Assembly (NCBI GenBank): GCA_043799405.1
Contig: JAZDNT010000003.1
Location: 207,461-271,460, forward strand
Direction of reading: 5' to 3'
From: Candidatus Kerfeldbacteria bacterium
GTDB lineage: Bacteria; Patescibacteriota; Patescibacteriia; SBBC01
Length of the DNA stretch: 64,000 nucleotides
Shown: positions 6,700 to 41,107 of the stretch, in pieces
Layout: each line of letters starts with the position of its first letter
Position numbering within the stretch: the first letter of the stretch is position 1
Notes under the pieces: generated by a model
The model's database searches: none
The model's input: the letters and a program-made list of their open reading frames with translations, nothing else
What the model was told of the DNA's origin: nothing
Position numbers and translations under genes: made by a program

Positions 6700-7825
6700 T
6701 TAACCCTCTTCCTTCCCGCTCGGCGACCGCTTCGGCCGTCCTTGCTTGTCCCAACGAAGGTACGCTTCGATGAAACGCGCAATGTCGCCGTTCAGAACGG
6801 CGTCGACGTCGCCCGTCTCTTCCTTCGTCCTGTGGTCCTTTACCATCCGGTACGGCTGCAGGACGTACGATCGTATCTGGTTCCCCCACGCTGCCTCCGC
6901 GTACTCGCCGCGAAGCTGCTGCTTCTCCCGATGGATCTTCTCCTCCTCAAGAAGCTGCAGCTTTGACGTGAGGATCCTCATGGCTGTCTCTCGGTTCTGC
7001 TGCTGGGAACGCTCGTTCTGTACGGACACCATGATCTTCGTCGGAAGGTGCACGATGCGTACGGCAGAGTAGGTCGTCTGTACCCCCTGTCCGCCGTGTC
7101 CTCCCGCAAGGAACGTATCGACACGGATATCCTTCGGATCGATCGTCACTGCCTCGGCTTCCTCGAATTCCGGGATCGCCTCAACGAGCGCGAACGACGT
7201 GTGCCGCATCTTCTCCGCATCGTAGGGGCTTATCCTGACGAGACGGTGAACGCCCGCTTCGCTCTTAAGGTACCCGTAGGCGTAGCGACCGGTAACCTCG
7301 AACGTCGCGCTCTTGATCCCCGCTTCACTGCCGCGGGATTCATCAAGAAGCTTAACGGTCCACTTTTTCTTTTCACAGAAACGTAAGATCATCCGCAGGA
7401 GCATCTCCGCCCAGTCCTGCGCATCGGTCCCGCCCGTACCGGCGTGCACCGCTACGATAGCGTTCCGCTCGTCATGCTTCCCTCCGAGCAGAATCCGGAA
7501 CTCGAGTTCGCGCATTACTCCCTCGATCTTACCGATCCCACGCTCAATGTCCTTCCGTACGCTCTCCGCATCAGCATCCTCGATCATGTTCGACAAATCG
7601 GCGGTCTCTGTATCGAGCCGCTGCCACACCGCGATGTCGTCCTTGAGCCCGCTTAAGCGCTTGCTCTCCGCTTCAGCGCGCCTCCGGTCAGCCCAATAAT
7701 CCGGCTGCGCCATCCGGTCTTCTATCTCGGCTATCTCCTGCTTTTTCTGGTCAAGGTCAAAGAAACCTCCGCGAATCGGAGATCTTCTGCTTCAGGACAT
7801 TGATGCGATCACGAAGGTCTTTCAT
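6700..7825 (-). CDS. prfB: peptide chain release factor 2, requires programmed +1 frameshift
   Basis: The short ORF0 starting at ATG 7825 reads MKDLRDRINVLKQKISDSRRFL and stops at TGA. The +1 frame continues DLDQKKQEIAEIEDRMAQPDYW into the 337-aa ORF, which carries GGQ (HGGQGVQ) and SPF-type RF2 sequence. Confidence 0.9.
7757..7770 (-). promoter_or_regulatory. RF2 autoregulatory +1 frameshift site
   Basis: Minus strand reads GGAGG TTT CTT TGA C. Internal SD-like GGAGG is at 7770-7766, slippery CTT at 7762-7760 and in-frame UGA at 7759-7757. This is the canonical prfB arrangement. Confidence 0.85.
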
Positions 7826-7884
7826 ACGAACGTACCATACCAAAAGCAGCGGCCTTGTTCAAGACCGCTGCCGGATTTCACGGA

Positions 7885-8175
7885 TTACTCGGCGTTAACG
7901 TTCGTTGTAGCGTTCGTATTGCTGTTCACATTCACGTTCGCGTTGTCATTGGTCGTGAACGTGCTCTCGTTCGTATTGACCGTCGCGTTGAGGTTCATCT
8001 TTGTAGACGACATATCAACGTCCTCATCCTTCGGCCAGAAAATCCAGGCGAATATCGCTGTTGCGACCGCCATCGCAAAAATGACCGCGATCACCGGATA
8101 GAGGTGATTAATAGGGGTTTTCGGCTTTTGTTGAGGCTGTTGTGGCTGTGGTTGTTGCGGTTGTGGGTTATCCAT
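7885..8175 (-). CDS. small single-pass membrane protein with PQ-rich N-terminus and Asn-rich tail
   Basis: MDNPQPQQPQPQQPQQKPK, then TM helix YPVIAVIFAMAVATAIFAWIFW, then NATVNTN...NANVNVNSNTNATTNVNAE. Confidence 0.55.
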   Translation of the reverse strand: MDNPQPQQPQPQQPQQKPKTPINHLYPVIAVIFAMAVATAIFAWIFWPKDEDVDMSSTKMNLNATVNTNESTFTTNDNANVNVNSNTNATTNVNAE

Positions 8176-8258
8176 AAGACGTTTTATTCACAATGATAAG
8201 GTTTCTAAGCTGTAGTATACCATAAAATGCCCTGAACGTTGAATTGCGCTATCTATGG

Positions 8259-9059
8259 CTATTTCGTGAAGGTGAATGACGCTAGAAAGTTCTTGAATTC
8301 CGTAGCGTACTTCACCTCTCCGCTGAGGATAAAGTAGCCAAAGTGATAGTAACGCCCATTGTGTTGAACGAAAACGTCATCTTTGTACTCCCCGCCGCCG
8401 GTCATCGATTCGCTGTCTTTCTTCGCGGTTCCGGTCAAACGAGTGCCTGATACTCCGCCGACGGTCACGGTCGTCTGTTTCGGATCGACCATGATGCTCT
8501 TCGTTTCGTTGATGGTGGTTGTAAGATTGAAACCTACCGACATTCGATCGATCACGAAATCGTTGCCCGGACCCTCGCTCTGGCAGGGAATGGGCGTAGT
8601 CCCGAACCAGACCGCCGTAACATCCGGACACGTATACACCTTCCAGGTGTTCGGGTACTTCACGGTATAGCCAATGGTGCTGTTCGTATACGTCTTCCAG
8701 TCCTTCGTCGGATCCATTGACGCATTCACATTGCTGTTAGTGTTAGCGTTGAGGGTAACATTGACGTTCCCATTTGCATTGGTTATTACATTAACGTTCG
8801 CGTTACTGTTGCTGACCACAGCAACATTGGTATTTAAATTTCCATTGATGTTACTATTTGCATTCGCATTTTCGTTAACATTCCCGTTTATCACAACCGT
8901 GCTGTTGGTATTCACGTTGACAAGTCTCATATTCGTATCAGCGCTCTCGTTCGTGTTTTTCGTCATGCTGTAAAAGAAATATCCGGTCACGCCAAGCGCG
9001 AGAACGGCAACAATGATAACGACTATAGGAATAGCGGCGATGCCTTTAGTGTTGTTCAT
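8259..9059 (-). CDS. signal-anchored exoprotein, paralog 1 (Asn-rich linker, WKTY..Y.VKYP..W domain, C-terminal FTFTK)
   Basis: N-terminus MNNTKGIAAIPIVVIIVAVLALGVTGYFFYS, a (N-x)n linker, DWKTYTNSTIGYTVKYPNTWKVY, and it ends FLASFTFTK. Confidence 0.75.
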   Translation of the reverse strand: MNNTKGIAAIPIVVIIVAVLALGVTGYFFYSMTKNTNESADTNMRLVNVNTNSTVVINGNVNENANANSNINGNLNTNVAVVSNSNANVNVITNANGNVNVTLNANTNSNVNASMDPTKDWKTYTNSTIGYTVKYPNTWKVYTCPDVTAVWFGTTPIPCQSEGPGNDFVIDRMSVGFNLTTTINETKSIMVDPKQTTVTVGGVSGTRLTGTAKKDSESMTGGGEYKDDVFVQHNGRYYHFGYFILSGEVKYATEFKNFLASFTFTK

Positions 9060-9100
9060 AGTGGTTTCAATATTATTTATTTCGTAAAGGTGAAGGTGGA
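9036..9100. repeat. homogenised gene-junction repeat, copy A (5' end of paralog 1, spacer, 3' end of paralog 2)
   Basis: ggcgatgcctttagtgtt(gtt)catagtggtttcaatattatttatttcgtaaaggtgaaggtgga is near-identical to 10205-10266. The differences are one 3-nt indel and one substitution. Confidence 0.85.
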
Positions 9101-10225
9101 AAGGAGCGCACTTTCTTCACTATCGGTAACATCAAACATTTGAATGTAATATACCTTATCATTATGGAAGAAAATAAAATCATTTGAGTTGACTTCACCG
9201 GGGACATGACGATAGACATCGGCTGTGATGCCGCCGATTGTTTTTGTTGTCCGAGCATCGCGTACGTCAGGGATCGAACTGAGCTGTATTTGTGATACTC
9301 TTTCATACGCTTGGGTCAGGGTCTCCGTTCCCAAACATGGAACCACCCGCACAGACATGTTATTTGCTACGGTCGATGTACTACCTGTGTTTGGATTTGG
9401 CGTAATAGGAACGCCTAGCGTGAGATCAGATCCCGTGCCCTGGGCATTCCACTTAGATGGATACTTAAAGTTATATACATTCTCGGAGTCTGAATACGTT
9501 TTCCACCCGGCGGTTTGATCTGTGAATCGCAGAGAGTTAACAACGGATGTAAAGTCGCTTACGTACCTCGCATAGTCCTGTCGATCGTCCACTGTTCCGT
9601 TAACCGCGTAGTGGATACTTATTTCTCTCATATGGTAGCGCACTATAACACCTGAATGGCTAATAATGAACTCACGGTCAGTATACGAGTCAGTTACGAT
9701 CTTCGCGGAATAACTGGGATACCCATTGATCGGAGTTTCGTTGACATCGGTGCGGGAAGATGGAGAAATGTTTTCATTAAACCAATCCTTAGGAGTCTTG
9801 CTCGAAGAAAAAATTTGGAATGTTGTCAACCAGAACGAGTCGTTTCCATTTTCCGTCCGGTATGCGTCGAGTACATCCTTTGGAGTCAATCCAACTTGTT
9901 CATTGCTCCGCAGTCCTGACTGAGGAAGATCCTGCTTTTCCCAGGTTGAAGGATACGTAAATGTTAGATTGTACGTATTACTTGTGTATGTCTGTTTCGT
10001 GGCACCATCGACGGCTATAGTGCTGTTGGTATTCGCGTTTTCGTTAACATTCCCATTGATCACAACTGTGCTATTAGTGTTCACATTGATCAGTCCCGCG
10101 TTCGTATCCGTGCTCTCGTTCGTGTTCTTGAACGAACTGTAGAAAAAGTACCCGGTCACGCCGAGCGCGAGAACGGCGGCGATGATGACGATGACTGGAA
10201 TAATGGCGATGCCTTTAGTGTTCAT
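9077..10225 (-). CDS. signal-anchored exoprotein, paralog 2 (two copies of the Y.F.YPS.W-type domain, C-terminal FTFTK)
   Basis: N-terminus MNTKGIAIIPVIVIIAAVLALGVTGYFFYS. Domains YNLTFTYPSTWEKQ and GWKTYSDSENVYNFKYPSKWNAQ. Ends LLSTFTFTK. Confidence 0.75.
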   Translation of the reverse strand: MNTKGIAIIPVIVIIAAVLALGVTGYFFYSSFKNTNESTDTNAGLINVNTNSTVVINGNVNENANTNSTIAVDGATKQTYTSNTYNLTFTYPSTWEKQDLPQSGLRSNEQVGLTPKDVLDAYRTENGNDSFWLTTFQIFSSSKTPKDWFNENISPSSRTDVNETPINGYPSYSAKIVTDSYTDREFIISHSGVIVRYHMREISIHYAVNGTVDDRQDYARYVSDFTSVVNSLRFTDQTAGWKTYSDSENVYNFKYPSKWNAQGTGSDLTLGVPITPNPNTGSTSTVANNMSVRVVPCLGTETLTQAYERVSQIQLSSIPDVRDARTTKTIGGITADVYRHVPGEVNSNDFIFFHNDKVYYIQMFDVTDSEESALLSTFTFTK

Positions 10226-10266
10226 AGTGGTTTCAATATTATTTATTTCGTGAAGGTGAAGGTGGA
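10205..10266. repeat. homogenised gene-junction repeat, copy B (5' end of paralog 2, spacer, 3' end of paralog 3)
   Basis: ggcgatgcctttagtgttcatagtggtttcaatattatttatttcgtgaaggtgaaggtgga. See copy A. Confidence 0.85.
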
Positions 10267-11379
10267 GAGAAGACTATTAAACGCCTGCTGATCAGCGCCA
10301 TCGGTTTTATTGTTATATTGGATCTGAATCGTTAATGACCCTTTGGTTACGAACACAACGTCTTTCTTCCCAAAATCCATTCCCTCACTAACCATACCCG
10401 TGATCCTCAGCGCCGTGATACCATCAATTGTAATCGTTGATTCAGTCGTATTGCTCAACGATTTTTTCCAACTCGACGTACTTCCGTCAGCATCAAGAAC
10501 TATATCGAAGATGCCAAGCGCTTCTGACCCACATGTAACTTTTTTCGTGTCAAAGATAACGAACGATGGAATTTGTTGGCAATCGTTTACGACCCATGAG
10601 GCCGGATACTTGACGGAATACCCAACGCTTGAGTTCGTATACGTCTTCCACCCGGCGGTGGGGTCGGCTGTCGTGGGGAATACAAGTGTGCCGATGACGG
10701 TCTCCCAATCAGTTTGATTTGGCACTACATTGAATATCACAGTTGTACCTCCCCACACAACGATGAACGACCTTGGAGTAGAACCAATTGCGGTTGTATA
10801 CATTATCTCCGTGCCCGAAATGCCGCTGATAATTTTTCCTTCTTGTGATGTAACGTGAGTGGATTCGGCGTCAAGAGCGTTTATCCGATCAACCTCTTGC
10901 TTTATGGTCCAATTTTCCCGCACTGAAATGAACGGCAGTGGTCCAGGTGGATTAGTAGGGGTAAACACAACAACATACGGTCCTTCGTTATTATATCCAG
11001 TAGTAACGAGTTTTGTGCTCCAAGATAGTGGATACTTTACGCTAAAATTGTATTTTTTATCCTCATACGTCTTCCAATCCTTCGTTGCGTTGGCTGATGC
11101 GTTTACGTTGCTATTCGCGTTGGTATTCGTATTGCTGTTGGTATTTACGTTCGCGTTTTTGTTTGTATTCGCAGGGCACGCGGCAAATTCACAGTCCGGT
11201 CCGGTCCTTCCGACTGCGGTTCCGTCAGGGCAGATCTTCGCTTCCGTAGTACACGAGACCGCGGTATTCGTTAAATTTCCCTTTGCCGTGTTGTATACAA
11301 AATATCCAGTCACGCCGAGTGCAAGAACTGCAAGAATAATGACGACAATCGGGAGCGCCGCGATGCCTTTCGGTTTCAT
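10243..11379 (-). CDS. signal-anchored exoprotein, paralog 3 (Cys-rich insert, two domain copies, C-terminal FTFTK)
   Basis: Start moved to ATG 11379 (MKPKGIAALPIVVIILAVLALGVTGYFVYN) by analogy with paralogs 1 and 2, with GGAG upstream. Domains DWKTYEDKKYNFSVKYPLSW and GWKTYTNSSVGYSVKYPASW. Ends LLSTFTFTK. Confidence 0.7.
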   Translation of the reverse strand: MKPKGIAALPIVVIILAVLALGVTGYFVYNTAKGNLTNTAVSCTTEAKICPDGTAVGRTGPDCEFAACPANTNKNANVNTNSNTNTNANSNVNASANATKDWKTYEDKKYNFSVKYPLSWSTKLVTTGYNNEGPYVVVFTPTNPPGPLPFISVRENWTIKQEVDRINALDAESTHVTSQEGKIISGISGTEIMYTTAIGSTPRSFIVVWGGTTVIFNVVPNQTDWETVIGTLVFPTTADPTAGWKTYTNSSVGYSVKYPASWVVNDCQQIPSFVIFDTKKVTCGSEALGIFDIVLDADGSTSSWKKSLSNTTESTITIDGITALRITGMVSEGMDFGKKDVVFVTKGSLTIQIQYNNKTDGADQQAFNSLLSTFTFTK

Positions 11380-11531
11380 AGTTTCTCCAATGTGAGATTT
11401 AATTCTGTGCATAACTAGTATAGCACGTGCCTTCTCTATTTAATCGTGGCGGGTTATAGCAAAAAATGTTGACAAAGTACGTAGAAACAACCTACCATGA
11501 TTTTACAAACGGTGGCGGAATAAAGCCACCG

Positions 11532-11906
11532 ATGTTTCTCTATAACCACCCCGATCTCAAACAAAGACGGCAATCACTCCGTAATGCTCGAATTCCTGCC
11601 GAAACGATACTCTGGCAACATCTCCAGAGAAGTCAATTCTTTGGTTACAAGTTTCGTCGGCAGTACGGAGTTGGTCCGTACGTGCTGGATTTTTTCTGCT
11701 CTGAACTTCGGCTGGCAATTGAAATCGACGGTGACTCACATTCCGCGCCTGACGCCAAGACGTACGACAAGCAACGTCAACAATTCATTGAAAGCGAAGA
11801 CATAATCGTTATCAGATTCTTGAATACAGACGTTCATCAAAACGTCGATGGCGTGTTGGAGCGATTGTACAAGATTATTACCACCCTCTGTCTCCCTCCT
11901 ACATGA
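11532..11906 (+). CDS. DUF559 / Vsr-like endonuclease-domain protein
   Basis: ILWQHLQRSQFFGYKFRRQYGVGPYVLDFFCSELRLAIEIDGDSH...VIRFLNTDV is typical DUF559. Start is uncertain: the ORF opens at 11466, and ATG 11532 gives the usual length of about 124 aa. Confidence 0.75.
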   Translation: MFLYNHPDLKQRRQSLRNARIPAETILWQHLQRSQFFGYKFRRQYGVGPYVLDFFCSELRLAIEIDGDSHSAPDAKTYDKQRQQFIESEDIIVIRFLNTDVHQNVDGVLERLYKIITTLCLPPT

Positions 11907-11915
11907 GGAGGGAGA
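11891..11915. terminator. CCCTCC/GGAGGG hairpin spanning the DUF559 stop codon
   Basis: TCTCCCTCCT (11891-11900) pairs with AGGAGGGAGA (11906-11915); loop acatg. Confidence 0.4.
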
Positions 11916-11941
11916 ACTCACGGAAAGGGCGTTTAGCAAGT

Positions 11942-11966
11942 TTCCCCTCCTAGGGTAGGAGGGGAA
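11942..11966. terminator. perfect 11-bp hairpin between convergent genes
   Basis: TTCCCCTCCTA (11942-11952) pairs with TAGGAGGGGAA (11956-11966); loop ggg. Lies between DUF559 (+) and the L,D-transpeptidase (-). Confidence 0.5.
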
Positions 11967-12018
11967 CAAGGGGTGGTACGAAATGGGGGAACCGCTAAAC
12001 AGAGAAGGGGGAGATACG

Positions 12019-13443
12019 CTAACTCTTATAGATTACAACAGGCGTCCCGATCTCAGCCCAGTTGAATATCCACTCTGCTGCATCGAGCGGTTCGCCAACG
12101 CAGCCGTGGCTTCTAGGGCGTATACCGAAATCGTTGTGCCAGTAGACGCCGTGGATCGAGTAGTCGCCCTTGAACCAGAGGATGTGCGGCACGTTCGGTA
12201 CGTAGTATCCGCGACCCGACATCTTCTGCTTTTCGATCTTGCTGTAGACCCTGAACGTGCCGGTCGGCGTCCAGTCATGAATGCCGGATGAGATCTTCGT
12301 CGAGTACACTAGTATCCCGTTCTCGTAGTCATACTCCATCTGCTTTGTAAGGTCGACGCCGATCGCCTTGCCGGTCGGAAATGGCGCCGGAGGCGGCGTA
12401 AGGTACGTGATGCCAAACGGAACCTCGACGGTCGGCAGCTCGACAGTATCGTTGCCAGAAAGCATCGCATCACGGAGCCGGTTTGATGCCTCCTGAACCG
12501 CGAGCATCGTGCCGGGAACTCCTTGTTTAATGACTTCGACCTTATGAGTACTTACAAGTATCTCCTGCGGAACTGGTGCAACGTTCACTTCGGAAGCGAT
12601 GGATTCAAGGTACGATGTCACACCCTTTTCATCGAGCGTTACTGTAGCGACGACGCCATCTTTTGGTCGAACGCCGAGCGAAGCGAGCTCTCTTCCCCCC
12701 TTTCCCTCCATGACCTTAACGATGATCCACGACGCGATCCTCTCACGGTCCGGAGTGAACGTCTTTCCACGCGCTTTGAACGTAACAGTTCGCTGCAGTA
12801 GCGCTTCTGCTTCCTGCTGCGGCCCGACAAGATTTGCGGCAGTGACATTCGCAGCAATAGGGCGCGGCGAGATCGCGACGGTAACGGCCTTACCTTTTGT
12901 AACAGTCGGCATCAGCTGTTGCTGCAGTGGTTCTGGATCGATCATAGTGCCGCTCTCGTCAGGTACGATCGAGAACGAGCCGTTTATATATGCGAGCTTC
13001 GCATCCTGCGGCAACGTGCCAAACGTCGACACGAGCTGATCGAGCTGATTTCGTAATGCATCTTCCGACCAGACAACAGGCACGTCAAGAGATTTCCGTG
13101 CCACACTTGCATTCAAGAATGCTGTGAACCCGCTCCGACGTCCGATATCGAACGCACTCTTGATGGGCACATCGACATCATACGACACGCCAAGGTTTGC
13201 TACGCTAAACTTCCACGACATGCTTCCATAAGTAAGCGTGAATCGTAGCGTCGTAAGGTTCTCATTTATACGTTCACGCGCCTGAGATACGGTAAGGCTG
13301 CCAACTGGAACGTTTGCGACACGGATGCCCGGAAGGATCCTTCCCTGGAGCAACGCTGCGCATACGACAAAGAAGACGCTTATGAACGAAGCTGTCGCAA
13401 GAACCCAAAGCCGGATGCTTGTTTGCTTTTGTTTTTTCCGCAT
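12019..13443 (-). CDS. L,D-transpeptidase (YkuD catalytic domain) with N-terminal anchor and YoaR/VanW-like region
   Basis: C-terminal HGVYWHNDFGIRPRSHGCVGEP carries the SHGC active site. N-terminal TM helix WVLATASFISVFFVVCAALL. Confidence 0.85.
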   Translation of the reverse strand: MRKKQKQTSIRLWVLATASFISVFFVVCAALLQGRILPGIRVANVPVGSLTVSQARERINENLTTLRFTLTYGSMSWKFSVANLGVSYDVDVPIKSAFDIGRRSGFTAFLNASVARKSLDVPVVWSEDALRNQLDQLVSTFGTLPQDAKLAYINGSFSIVPDESGTMIDPEPLQQQLMPTVTKGKAVTVAISPRPIAANVTAANLVGPQQEAEALLQRTVTFKARGKTFTPDRERIASWIIVKVMEGKGGRELASLGVRPKDGVVATVTLDEKGVTSYLESIASEVNVAPVPQEILVSTHKVEVIKQGVPGTMLAVQEASNRLRDAMLSGNDTVELPTVEVPFGITYLTPPPAPFPTGKAIGVDLTKQMEYDYENGILVYSTKISSGIHDWTPTGTFRVYSKIEKQKMSGRGYYVPNVPHILWFKGDYSIHGVYWHNDFGIRPRSHGCVGEPLDAAEWIFNWAEIGTPVVIYKS

Positions 13444-27126: not shown

Positions 27127-28284
27127 CTACTGGTTCGTATTCGTTACGATACTGGAGTTGACGTTCGTATTCGTTACCGATGAAGCGGTGAGGTGGAAGC
27201 TCCGGTACATCACGATGAATGTCAACTTGAAGTTGACCTTGGTGAGCGCATTAGTGTTGTAGGAGATGATGTAGATCTTCGTCCCCTTCACGAAGTATAC
27301 CGTGCTCTCATCGAGGCTGATGACGCCGTCAAGACCGCTCATGGTCACGTCGATGATCTTCGTTGGATCAACGCCGGGGTTCAGGCTCAGGTAGTAGTTC
27401 TTAGCGGTCAGCTGCGACGGATTATCGAGTACGGTAACCTGGAAGAACTCGGGGGTTGCGCTGTCCGGAGTGATGATGACCGTTTTCTCATCCGTAGACG
27501 TTGCCTGCGTCAGCCAATTCTTCGGTACCCAGAGCGCGTAGCTGAACGTCGTGTTCGTGTAGGTCCGTATGACGCTGCATGACGAATCGTCGAGGCGCAC
27601 GCTGCCGGCTTTTGTCGGACAGTAACCGTTGTAGGTTTCACCCTCATACTTTCCGTTCGCGAGCTTTCGCATGCCGTCGATGAATCCGTCGCTATCACTA
27701 TCTTGGGCACTTGCGGTCGTACCGAACACCTGTTCTTCGATATCCGTGAGTCCGTCCGTATCTGTGTCGGTCGAAATCGGAAGTGGTGTACCAGTCGTTA
27801 TTGAGACGTTCGTATTTACGTTCGCATTCGCGTTCAAGTTTGTATTCAGGTTTGCATTCAGGTTTGTATTCAAGTTCAGGTTTGTATTCAGATTTGCATT
27901 CAGGTTTGCATTGAGGTTATCGTTCAGGTTCAGGTTCGTATTGAGGTTTGTATTCGCGTTTTCATTGACGTTGTATATGCTGTTCGTGTTCTCGTTGATG
28001 TTGACCGTCGCTACATTCTCGTTCGCCTCGTTCTTGTTCGACATTTTCGTGAAGTAGTACCATGCGCCCGCGCCAAGCCCACCGAGGACAACGGCGCTCA
28101 CCGCTGCTATAAGGATCTTCTTTCCGGCGCCTCCCGAACTGCGCGGAGCTCCGCCTGCTTCTCCGCCACCCGGTGCTCCTCCCGTATCGAGGAATCGCTC
28201 GGGCATGGTGTGAAAATCCTGCTGCGGTGCCGCAGGTTGGGCTTCCGGCGTCTGCTGGGGCATTTGTGGTTGATTCTCAAACAT
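27127..28284 (-). CDS. signal-anchored exoprotein with Asn-Leu repeat linker, TSP3-like calcium-binding repeats and a Y..W.P..W-type domain
   Basis: TM helix ILIAAVSAVVLGGLGAGAWYYF, then NLNTNLNLNDNLNANLNANLNTNLNLN.... Calcium-repeat segment DTDTDGLTDIEEQVFGT..DSDSDGFIDG. Domain segment TTFSYALWVPKNW. Confidence 0.7.
   Translation of the reverse strand: MFENQPQMPQQTPEAQPAAPQQDFHTMPERFLDTGGAPGGGEAGGAPRSSGGAGKKILIAAVSAVVLGGLGAGAWYYFTKMSNKNEANENVATVNINENTNSIYNVNENANTNLNTNLNLNDNLNANLNANLNTNLNLNTNLNANLNTNLNANANVNTNVSITTGTPLPISTDTDTDGLTDIEEQVFGTTASAQDSDSDGFIDGMRKLANGKYEGETYNGYCPTKAGSVRLDDSSCSVIRTYTNTTFSYALWVPKNWLTQATSTDEKTVIITPDSATPEFFQVTVLDNPSQLTAKNYYLSLNPGVDPTKIIDVTMSGLDGVISLDESTVYFVKGTKIYIISYNTNALTKVNFKLTFIVMYRSFHLTASSVTNTNVNSSIVTNTNQ
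27806..27975. repeat. imperfect 12-nt-periodic coding tandem repeat (Asn-x)n
   Basis: ttcaggtttgta / ttcaggtttgca / ttcaagttcagg units encode NLNTNLNANLN... inside the 27127..28284 ORF. Confidence 0.7.
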
Positions 28285-39478: not shown

Positions 39479-41107
39479 ATGCCGATTCAGCGTTTGCAGA
39501 ACAACCAACAACGAGAAGAGCTAAAGCCCTCCGCTGAAAAGCGTCCGAGGACGAGGTCCTTGTATTGGTGGAAAATCGCGGGATCCCTCGTCGGCATCGT
39601 TATCGTGTTCATTGTCCTCGTCGGTTACCGGATCCTCGCCGCGATCAATACGACGGTCGAAGGGAACAAGAGGGTATCAGTACTGACCCAGCTCGGGCAC
39701 ATCGTTTCAAACCGCGACGCCCAGTTGAAGGGAGAGGCTGACGATAGGATTAATATCCTGCTCCTCGGTATCGGTGGCGAAGGACACGACGGTCCGCTGC
39801 TTACCGATACGATCATGCTCGCGAGCGTAAAGCCCTCGACCAATCAGGTCGCGCTCTTATCGATACCCCGCGACCTCGCCGTTGAGATCCCCCAGTACGG
39901 CAACCGTAAGATAAACAATGCGAATGCGTTCGGAAAGGAGCTCGGCTACCCCGGCGGCGGTGAACAGCTCGCGTCTGATGTCGTCGCGAAAACGGTCGGC
40001 CAGACCGTCCACTACTATGCACGCATCGATTTCGCAGGTTTCAAAGATATTATTGACAGTCTCGGCGGTATTTCAGTAACCGTCGAGAACAGCTTCACTG
40101 ATTCAGAGTACCCTACGGCGAACTACGGATACCAGACCATCCGTTTCGTTGCTGGCGAGCAATATATGAACGGCGAGACCGCCCTCAAGTTCGTGCGTTC
40201 CCGTCATGGCAACAACGGCGAAGGCTCTGATTTCGCTCGAAGCCGGAGGCAGCAGCTCGTTCTCGAGGCAGTACGCGACAAAACCCTCTCGCTCGGTACC
40301 ATCATGAATCCGATCAAGATCGGTAATGTCTTGAGCTCGCTCGGTACCCATACGCGAACGAACCTCGAGGTATGGGAGATCTTGCGGCTCGGCAAAATGG
40401 TGAGCGATACTACAAAGGATTCTATCATCTCAAAAGTTCTCGACAGTGCGCCGACGGGTTTGCTCAAGAACGCAACAGGAATCGACGGTGCGTTCCTTTT
40501 GCTCCCAAAAGATGACGATTTCCGGGCTGTACGAGCGTATGCGAGGGATATCTTTATCGCACAACGCTTCACAACAGAAGCAGCGCGGATCGTCATCCGG
40601 GACGAATCAGGACATTCAGGTACTGCAAAGATGGTCGCTGCATCGCTCGAATCGCTTGGCTTCCCCGCTCCGACGACCGACCAGACCGGAAAACCGAACA
40701 CGGATTCCGTTACCGCAATCATCGACTATACAAACGGCGCAAAGCCAAGTTCGCTGAAGAGTCTCGAGAGCTACCTAGGTGTATCTGCGGTCCCCTCTCT
40801 AGCACTCAGTGCGATCTCTCCGAGGCCGACCTACGAGGTTCCGAAGAATGTGAATAACGGCACGCCGGCCATTACCCAACCAGCGGACCTTCTCATCATC
40901 ATTGGTAAAGATTTCGTGAAAGCCTCGACGTCAACCACCTACAACAATGGCACTTCTACAAAAAAGACGAACGCCAATGCCAATACAAACAGTACGAATA
41001 AAAATACGAATTCCAATAGTAATAAGAACGTAAACGTGAACAAGAATAGCAATGCGAACAAGAACATAAACGTGAATACCAATTCTGCTTTGAACACCAA
41101 TTCATGA
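39479..41107 (+). CDS. LytR-CpsA-Psr (LCP) family cell-envelope phosphotransferase with C-terminal Asn-rich tail
   Basis: RINILLLGIGGEGHDGPLLTDTIMLASV...LLSIPRDL...VRSRH, after an N-terminal TM helix. The tail reads KKTNANANTNSTNKNTNSNSNKNVNVNKNSNANKNINVNTN. Confidence 0.85.
   Translation: MPIQRLQNNQQREELKPSAEKRPRTRSLYWWKIAGSLVGIVIVFIVLVGYRILAAINTTVEGNKRVSVLTQLGHIVSNRDAQLKGEADDRINILLLGIGGEGHDGPLLTDTIMLASVKPSTNQVALLSIPRDLAVEIPQYGNRKINNANAFGKELGYPGGGEQLASDVVAKTVGQTVHYYARIDFAGFKDIIDSLGGISVTVENSFTDSEYPTANYGYQTIRFVAGEQYMNGETALKFVRSRHGNNGEGSDFARSRRQQLVLEAVRDKTLSLGTIMNPIKIGNVLSSLGTHTRTNLEVWEILRLGKMVSDTTKDSIISKVLDSAPTGLLKNATGIDGAFLLLPKDDDFRAVRAYARDIFIAQRFTTEAARIVIRDESGHSGTAKMVAASLESLGFPAPTTDQTGKPNTDSVTAIIDYTNGAKPSSLKSLESYLGVSAVPSLALSAISPRPTYEVPKNVNNGTPAITQPADLLIIIGKDFVKASTSTTYNNGTSTKKTNANANTNSTNKNTNSNSNKNVNVNKNSNANKNINVNTNSALNTNS

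Follow-up and report, generated by a model that had tools for sequence, protein, structure and literature searches.

Within a 64,000-nucleotide window of the genome of a Candidatus Kerfeldbacteria bacterium (contig JAZDNT010000003.1, positions 207,461 to 271,460; coordinates below are those of the window), three co-oriented minus-strand open reading frames (ORFs) follow one another at 10243-11412 (389 aa), 9077-10225 (382 aa) and 8259-9059 (266 aa), here called genes A, B and C. The interval that contains the array is bounded by a gene for an L,D-transpeptidase of the YkuD type (ykuD, 12019-13443) and by prfB (6700 to about 7826). The encoded proteins begin and end alike and differ widely in between, and the question raised by the locus is how such similar ends came to enclose such different bodies. 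The initial annotation of the window proposed ongoing gene conversion or unequal crossover at the gene borders. The explanation that we prefer is a different one and is held with good though not full confidence: A, B and C are paralogues that diverged long ago, are transcribed together and have module-based ends, and they lie in a slot of the chromosome that is prone to recombination. The similarity of the ends in this genome is most probably due to conserved functional modules and an old common leader, and not to ongoing homogenisation.

The proteins and their family

The N-termini of the three proteins consist of one or two basic residues, about 24 hydrophobic residues and then an Asn-rich low-complexity stretch. 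Alignment bears out the common anchor, (Asn-x)n linker and ..FTFTK end that were described initially, and among the ORFs of the window the F-x-F-x-K end and the WKTY motif are found in A, B and C alone. The reported lengths of 266, 382 and 389 aa agree with the ORFs. For gene A, the ATG at 11379 (MKPKGIA..., with GGAGA upstream) is a more likely start than the ATG of the longer frame at 11412, and a public annotation, P0001, is 100% identical to A and has the same length as the product of ATG-11379 (378 aa). Exact-sequence look-ups of the B and C proteins matched no record. The number of domains differs among the genes as noted at the outset: domain alignment and models give two in A, two in B (the first with a degenerate start) and one in C. 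The Cys-rich insert ascribed to one of the genes is present in A at residues 43-68.

The five domains of the window align from start motif to tail motif and follow one plan, with a start of the form (D/N)xT..WKTY....(Y/F)..KYP..W and an end of the form ..L.(T/S)(F/L).F(T/P). The Pfam family PsbP_2 (PF18933) matches A at E=4e-11 with 43.7 bits, above its gathering cut-off of 27, and PsbP (PF01789) matches B with 31.7 bits, above its cut-off of 23.5. PsbP_2 scores 21.4 bits on C, under the cut-off of 27; the C domain aligns with A domain 2 at 35% identity (E=5e-21). AlphaFold2 models cover A and B, with a mean predicted local distance difference test (pLDDT) of 81.8 and 78.2, respectively. Both start with a long N-terminal helix (residues 8-34 in A and 8-33 in B), which a disordered linker joins to two alpha/beta domains. 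With Foldseek the A model finds CyanoP (2lnj) at E=1.2e-6 and a target-normalised template modelling (TM) score of 0.57, and the B model finds 9grx_0, a chain of the spinach NDH-PSI-LHCI supercomplex (E=4.7e-7), PsbP (2vu4, target-normalised TM 0.61) and CyanoP. Matches beyond PsbP include the Mycobacterium tuberculosis proteins Apa, MTC28 and LpqN as well as DcrB, Eag/SciW and Mog1p. As modelled, the A and B domains belong to the Mog1/PsbP-like fold superfamily.

A profile built from the five domains matched 7,875 representatives of clusters at 50% identity at E<=1e-3, and 674 at E<=1e-10. The best 150 of these 7,875 contain one to six matched stretches per protein, and matches with a source name come almost all from Patescibacteria, also called the candidate phyla radiation (CPR). 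With one or two domains each, A, B and C belong to this very large, mostly patescibacterial surface-protein family. They are fresh members of a known fold family, with an architecture typical of Patescibacteria.

By architecture, each protein comprises a signal anchor, an optional disulfide module (C..EAK.CPDG..VGR.GP.CEF..C), a disordered Asn stalk and one to several Mog1/PsbP-like domains, each opening with (D/N)xTxxWKTY....Y/F..KYP..W and closing with a helix and short strand, (I/L)LSTFxFT(K/D/E/Q/N). The N-terminal helix would be an uncleaved membrane anchor, and the Asn-rich stretch would act as a flexible stalk. Since their fold relatives among the mycobacterial proteins act by binding, the PsbP-like domains may be non-enzymatic binding modules outside the membrane, for partners in the envelope or on a host surface; variation in domain type and number would then change what is bound. 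A type IV pilin-like (class III) signal peptide was considered and rejected, with the G|FTLIE-type motif in none of 259 family proteins retrieved and no N_methyl Pfam match. The KGIAxxP N-terminus occurs in just 19 of the 259.

Junction repeat, leaders and tails

The junction composed of a gene 3' end, a 17-nt spacer and the next 5' end is repeated almost perfectly, as the initial annotation stated. The copies at 10205-10266 and 9036-9100 share 61 of 62 aligned bases and differ further by one 3-nt (codon) indel, and both spacers are 17 nt long. The 26-mer TAAATAATATTGAAACCACTATGAAC is present in exactly two copies, where 100 shuffles gave an expectation of 0, and no third copy was found in the 64-kb window. 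A wider repeat made up of gene tail, spacer and about 200 nt of leader has 81% identity over 256 nt. Folding of the junction RNA revealed no structure beyond that of shuffles (z about -0.1 to -0.2; z=-0.12 for the A-to-B spacer).

Such a repeat could come from gene conversion or unequal crossover among A, B and C that goes on within the genome and keeps their 5' and 3' ends alike. This is what the exact 26-mer and the nearly identical junctions would lead one to expect, and the spacer, identical at 17 of 17 positions at both window junctions, is different in L001, a related locus, so that the identity is specific to the window genome. The leaders beside the tract, however, are saturated at synonymous sites. 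Over codons 3-70 the B and C leaders are 84% identical in amino acids, and the codon is the same for 33 of the 56 identical residues (0.59). When ykuD and prfB are compared in this way between the window genome and three relatives in which YkuD is about 50% identical, the fraction runs from 0.46 to 0.61, effectively the saturation level set by codon bias. The synonymous similarity of the paralogues does not exceed this between-species background; the B and C leaders are saturated, and ongoing homogenisation of the ends is therefore unsupported. The tails of A and B agree at only 6 of 9 codons, and across 48 aligned residues the A leader shares only 56-58% identity with the B and C leaders. Orthologues in other genomes resemble the first seven codons and the tail codons no less closely than the paralogues resemble one another there: the start of B equals the start of the L007 gene at 21 of 21 nt, and the A tail TCCACCTTCACCTTCACGAA is identical in L001. 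The 62-nt junction is the sole sharp tract of high identity between paralogues, and since its coding flanks are conserved to the same degree between species, only the 17-nt spacer is left. A converted tract could span about 20-60 nt at most. The spacer may be a short conversion tract, or it may be constrained for translational coupling. As an account of the similar ends, ongoing conversion is unlikely.

The tail itself is a signature of the family. Among the 259 family proteins, an [IL]LSTFxF motif lies no more than 12 residues from the C-terminus in 196, and 157 of the 196 (80%) stop exactly two residues after F-x-F, with K (76), D (22), N (20), Q (17) or E (14) as the last residue. The consensus over the domain joint of two-domain members reads ILSTFxFT-DPTAxWKTY, so the tail also occurs internally, just ahead of the next domain. 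In the A model it forms the end of the last helix (362-373) and a short terminal strand (375-376), and B is alike. FTFTK is a fold element and therefore unlikely to be a sorting signal or a product of local homogenisation. Of the two roles initially offered for it, that of a structural last strand agrees with both the models and the internal copies, and that of a sorting signal is not supported, given a motif that lies inside a folded domain and a terminal Lys in only 76 of 157 proteins. A sortase signal of the LPXTG type was likewise rejected, as the proteins end in ...LLSTFTFTK with nothing beyond.

At the nucleotide level the tail codons are kept across genomes (window 10246-10272 and 9080-9106; L001 about 9085-9113; gene ends of L007, L006, L090 and L091). 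The tail Ser is TCC in all seven genes that have Ser there, compared with 13% TCC among the Ser codons of the window, and the tail Thr is ACC at 11 of 14 positions. Selection on codons or a common recombination history may explain this.

The slot between ykuD and prfB

The globular domains of the array are 22-35% identical to one another, and the closest relative of each is found in another genome, joined to a different leader or to other partner domains. A domain 1 is 77% identical in amino acids to domain 1 of L001 gene 1, its positional orthologue, and 67% identical to domain 2 of P0004. A domain 2 is 93% identical to domain 2 of P0003/L006, the front half of which is unrelated. B domain 1 reaches 52% identity with P0122 domain 1, and the C domain 53% with P0008, 48% with P0009 domain 1 and 35% with A domain 2. 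The leaders of B and C are 84% identical and their domains 27%, and because these domains are closer to proteins of other genomes, the leaders appear younger than the bodies. The B and C leader type is that of the first gene after ykuD in relatives and was therefore probably joined to unrelated bodies by earlier recombination.

Across relatives, the ykuD-prfB slot holds one to five anchored genes. A single gene lies between ykuD and prfB in L007, and a single gene with the same leader and a passenger that is not PsbP-like in L010. The window has three genes followed by a small gene D, L001 has four genes and D, and L092 has three genes, D and one more gene. The L010 gene (11513-12862) fuses the conserved leader (MNNKGIAILPVVVIVAGLLAFGATGYFFYSTVKNTNDTADTN..) to a passenger without a WKTY/FTFTK domain, which has a weak match to PD40-like repeats; the leader therefore serves as a general export/anchor module at the slot.

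Two sequences have the form of recombinants. In gene 1 of L092 the promoter region and the leader/linker resemble those of L001 gene 1 (80-93% nt identity over the first 30 codons), and from about residue 80 the body is that of L001 gene 2 (75% aa identity). Such a chimera is what a crossover between adjacent leaders would be expected to produce. In the second case, the first 236 residues of A and of the L006 gene cannot be aligned, with upstream identity at random level. At the first codon of A domain 2 (window 10665; GAC CCC ACC GCC GGG TGG AAG ACG TAT) a tract begins that has 97% DNA identity over 247 nt. Past the tract there are 32 mismatches in 175 nt (82% identity; Fisher p=2.8e-7, best breakpoint 10418). 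The GC content at third codon positions (GC3) changes within genes as well, being 0.70 in the B leader, 0.69 in the C domain and 0.42-0.52 in both domains of A and of B (B domains 0.44-0.47), with 0.61-0.77 in the flanking genes.

The syntenic position thus differs among relatives in copy number and content, and chimeras occur at module borders. These comparisons support the view that genes and domains are exchanged at motifs of the leader/linker and of the domain boundaries, on an evolutionary time scale between lineages. Whole genes would be gained and lost among relatives by crossovers in leader and linker, and crossovers at the conserved boundary ...LSTFxFT|DPTAGWKTY... would substitute one domain for another. 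The ends would stay alike since the anchor and tail modules face the strongest purifying selection, the ligand-facing bodies being different old subtypes. The initial view of a locus built for variation in copy number and content by way of cassette borders is upheld in so far as it follows from the gene counts, the chimera and the L006 tract of other genomes; the junction repeat does not serve as evidence for it. Tandem Repeats Finder detected no real tandem arrays in the Asn linkers, so that slippage-type variation in linker length is not evident.

Several points weigh against this explanation. The compared loci belong to relatives at the level of species or genus rather than to strains and do not give the tempo of rearrangement. 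L006 is a 1.3-kb contig whose genomic context is inferred from flanking similarity alone. Unequal constraint on leader and body could inflate the apparent gap in age between them, and the lower GC3 of the domains could mean relaxed codon selection instead of foreign origin. Purifying selection on the protein leaves the identical 17-nt spacer unexplained. A literature search found no functional study of, or paper on, anchored PsbP-like proteins of this kind.

It is improbable, though, that the genes simply arose by old tandem duplication and diverged where they stand, with ends kept by purifying selection alone and no recombination. Anchor, start motif and tail are conserved throughout the family and the paralogues are synonymously saturated, as this simpler history would have it. 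It does not account for B and C leaders so much more alike than their domains, nor for a C domain whose 53% match, P0008, has a different leader. A 97% identical tract beside unalignable sequence in A and L006, the leader/body chimera of L092 and the GC3 steps inside genes all speak against it.

Very little credence is given to the terminal Lys of FTFTK as a sorting or attachment signal, for instance one cross-linked to peptidoglycan by the adjacent YkuD in the manner of Braun's lipoprotein. Lys ends all ten tail-bearing genes in ykuD-linked loci or close relatives, the exact stop after FxF is kept in 80% of tail-bearing family proteins, and the neighbouring ykuD gene has a PG_binding_4 domain. 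But the Lys-ended genes are from close relatives and not independent, the motif also closes first domains internally and forms helix end and strand in the models, and the remainder of the 157 exact-stop proteins end in D, N, Q or E. A metagenome scan with the single YkuD protein gave no relatives, and an alignment-based scan gave 80 more distant ykuD loci, of which only L010 and L011 proved informative; the remaining informative locus linked to ykuD, L007, was obtained from a scan of genome contigs. Among the 80, L011 alone has a family member beside ykuD, and adjacency is otherwise confined to the close clade. It is similarly far-fetched that the Kerfeldbacteria-clade proteins are membrane-to-wall tethers, with an N-terminal membrane anchor and an invariant C-terminal Lys bound to peptidoglycan by YkuD. 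If true, the tether would be analogous to Braun's lipoprotein in a group of bacteria that is not known to have an outer membrane, and the PsbP-like domains would be its exchangeable spacer or binding part.

An assembly artefact is very improbable, for although the source is a metagenome-assembled genome and repeats can mislead assemblers, the high-identity repeat is only about 60 nt, below read length, the flanking genes are distinct, and independent assemblies of relatives contain a comparable array at this position.

Features of the locus and known systems

Coordinates of the array, its parts and its presumptive signals are listed in Table 1. The operon status of A, B and C is inferred: the transcription unit would start at a TGnTATACT-type element upstream of A, and translation of B and C would be coupled by stop-restart across the 17-nt spacers. 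Elements resembling TG-N-TAtAcT also precede the first gene of the array in L001, L006 and L092. The hairpin at 7845-7872 is the likely end of the unit.

Table 1. Features of the anchored PsbP-like gene array in window coordinates.
Feature	Position	Strand	Remarks
Putative extended -10 element (TGCTATACT) upstream of A	11417-11425	-	predicted from sequence only
Gene A	10243-11379	-	378 aa; anchor, Cys module, Asn linker, two PsbP-like domains, end LLSTFTFTK
Transmembrane/signal-anchor helix of A (residues 8-34)	11278-11358	-	AlphaFold2 helix; hydrophobic run after MKPKG
Cys-rich module of A (C43-C68, CTTEAKICPDGTAVGRTGPDCEFAAC)	11176-11253	-	small beta-hairpins in model, pLDDT 78-85
Asn-rich low-complexity linker ('stalk') of A	11092-11175	-	pLDDT <50 at residues 73-93; (N-x)n runs
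A domain 1, PsbP-like	10666-11091	-	GC3 0.42
A domain 2, PsbP-like	10246-10665	-	GC3 0.52
Tract common to A and L006	10419-10665	-	8 mismatches in 247 nt, from first codon of domain 2
A-to-B intergenic spacer, 17 nt (ATAATATTGAAACCACT)	10226-10242	-	without Shine-Dalgarno motif
Gene B	9077-10225	-	382 aa, P0121; anchor, Asn linker, two PsbP-like domains, end LLSTFTFTK
B leader and linker (residues 1-66)	10028-10225	-	84% aa identity to C leader; GC3 0.70
B domain 1, PsbP-like, degenerate start motif (KQTYTSNTYNLTFTYPSTW)	9521-10027	-	model pLDDT about 90
B domain 2, PsbP-like	9080-9520	-	<=28% identity to any other domain compared, including P0122 domain 2
B-to-C spacer, 17 nt	9060-9076	-	same sequence as A-to-B spacer
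Gene C	8259-9059	-	266 aa; anchor, long Asn linker, one PsbP-like domain (8262-8714), end FLASFTFTK
Gene D	7885-8175	-	96 aa, anchor and Asn linker only; at array end also in L001 and L092
Intrinsic-terminator-like hairpin after D	7845-7872	-	12-bp stem, then TTTGG

The Cys module of A is found once in many family members and in tandem arrays in unrelated proteins (P0005, P0010, P0013), some with 2-4 or more copies. Its consensus is C..(E/D)AK.CPDG..VGR.GP.CEF..CP. No Pfam family matched it, and it therefore looks like an undescribed small disulfide domain.

The gene D protein consists of an N-terminus rich in Gln and Pro, followed by an anchor helix (..PVIAVIFAMAVATAIFAWI(F/L)WP..) and a linker of the Asn type; it has no globular domain. 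The gene is kept in three genomes, at 13212-13514 in L001 and 10001-10279 in L092 as well as in the window. A homologue search with D returned a single match, which led to locus L092. The anchor of D (..PVIA..IF..WPKDE) is of a type similar to the P0003 leader (L092 D versus P0003, E=2.8e-9), and D seems on that account to be a 'leader-only' member of the system.

Long (Asn-x)n runs are present also at the C-terminal end of a LytR-CpsA-Psr family protein (39479-41107, plus strand) and in an unannotated 385-aa ORF (27127-28284, minus strand); such linkers are therefore a general habit of the exported proteins of this genome. The GC content of 8001-12000 is 0.46, compared with 0.53-0.59 in the adjoining intervals on either side and about 0.50-0.63 over the whole window.

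A DUF559/REase-like ORF (11466-11906, plus strand; Pfam E=9e-29; GC3 0.48) separates ykuD from the array and is encoded on the other strand. Its homologue in L007 is on the other side of the array, adjoining prfB. Because of this change of position the ORF may be mobile, and it might contribute to rearrangement of the slot. The L007 and L008 records are labelled 'uncultured Gammaproteobacteria bacterium', yet L007 is syntenic with the Kerfeldbacteria locus (ykuD, anchored PsbP-like gene, DUF559, prfB), and the bins are probably mislabelled or contaminated.

The prfB gene (minus strand, 7826 to 6700) contains a classical programmed +1 frameshift site within 7758-7826. The first frame, ATG...CGG AGG TTT CTT TGA C, stops at TGA (7760-7758), and the rest of RF2 (..DLDQKKQEIAEIEDRMAQPDYWA..) is in the +1 frame. 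A Shine-Dalgarno-like GGAGG stands just upstream of the site.

Cells of Patescibacteria are thought to live attached to other microbes, and their surface proteins are little known. Here, proteins with a stalk, an anchor and PsbP-like domains are recognised as a very large family (about 7,900 clusters) with clear sequence signatures, and whole genes and single domains are found to be swapped between lineages in at least one conserved chromosomal slot. The family may reasonably be considered for roles in the envelope or in host contact that are under diversifying pressure, and the domain boundaries can now be used for expression and structural work. The mechanism is an ordinary one: the family is a mosaic of surface proteins in which the export and fold-closing modules are conserved.

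PsbP and CyanoP (PF01789, PF18933) share the Mog1/PsbP-like alpha/beta fold with the array proteins (Foldseek E=1e-6 to 5e-7, target-normalised TM 0.56-0.61) at a sequence identity of just 10-15%. The array host belongs to the non-photosynthetic Patescibacteria, no photosystem genes were seen in the 64-kb window, and the family domains stand in tandem, one to six per protein, behind anchor, Cys module and Asn stalk, with no link to photosystem II. The mycobacterial proteins Apa (5zxa), MTC28/Rv0040c (4pws) and LpqN (6e5d) likewise combine an export signal, a low-complexity linker and a Mog1/PsbP-like domain. They are envelope or secreted proteins that are non-enzymatic and act by binding. In contrast to the array proteins, their linkers are Pro/Ala-rich rather than Asn-rich, they have a cleaved signal or lipobox instead of a long anchor helix, and their single domain lacks the ILSTFxFTK signature; cassette shuffling is not known for them. 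The DUF1795/Eag chaperones (SciW, EagT6), DcrB and Tsi3 belong to the same fold superfamily and bind other proteins, but they are single-domain proteins of the cytoplasm or periplasm with links to type VI secretion, and they give weaker structural matches (E=1e-3 to 1e-2).

In their evolution the array proteins are comparable to the pneumococcal choline-binding and streptococcal M-like proteins, mosaic surface families that recombine between conserved flanks. As in the array, their export/anchor modules are conserved and their middles variable, breakpoints fall at module borders, and relatives differ in copy number and content. They differ from it in fold, anchor chemistry and phylum, and rapid switching within populations is not in evidence for the array.

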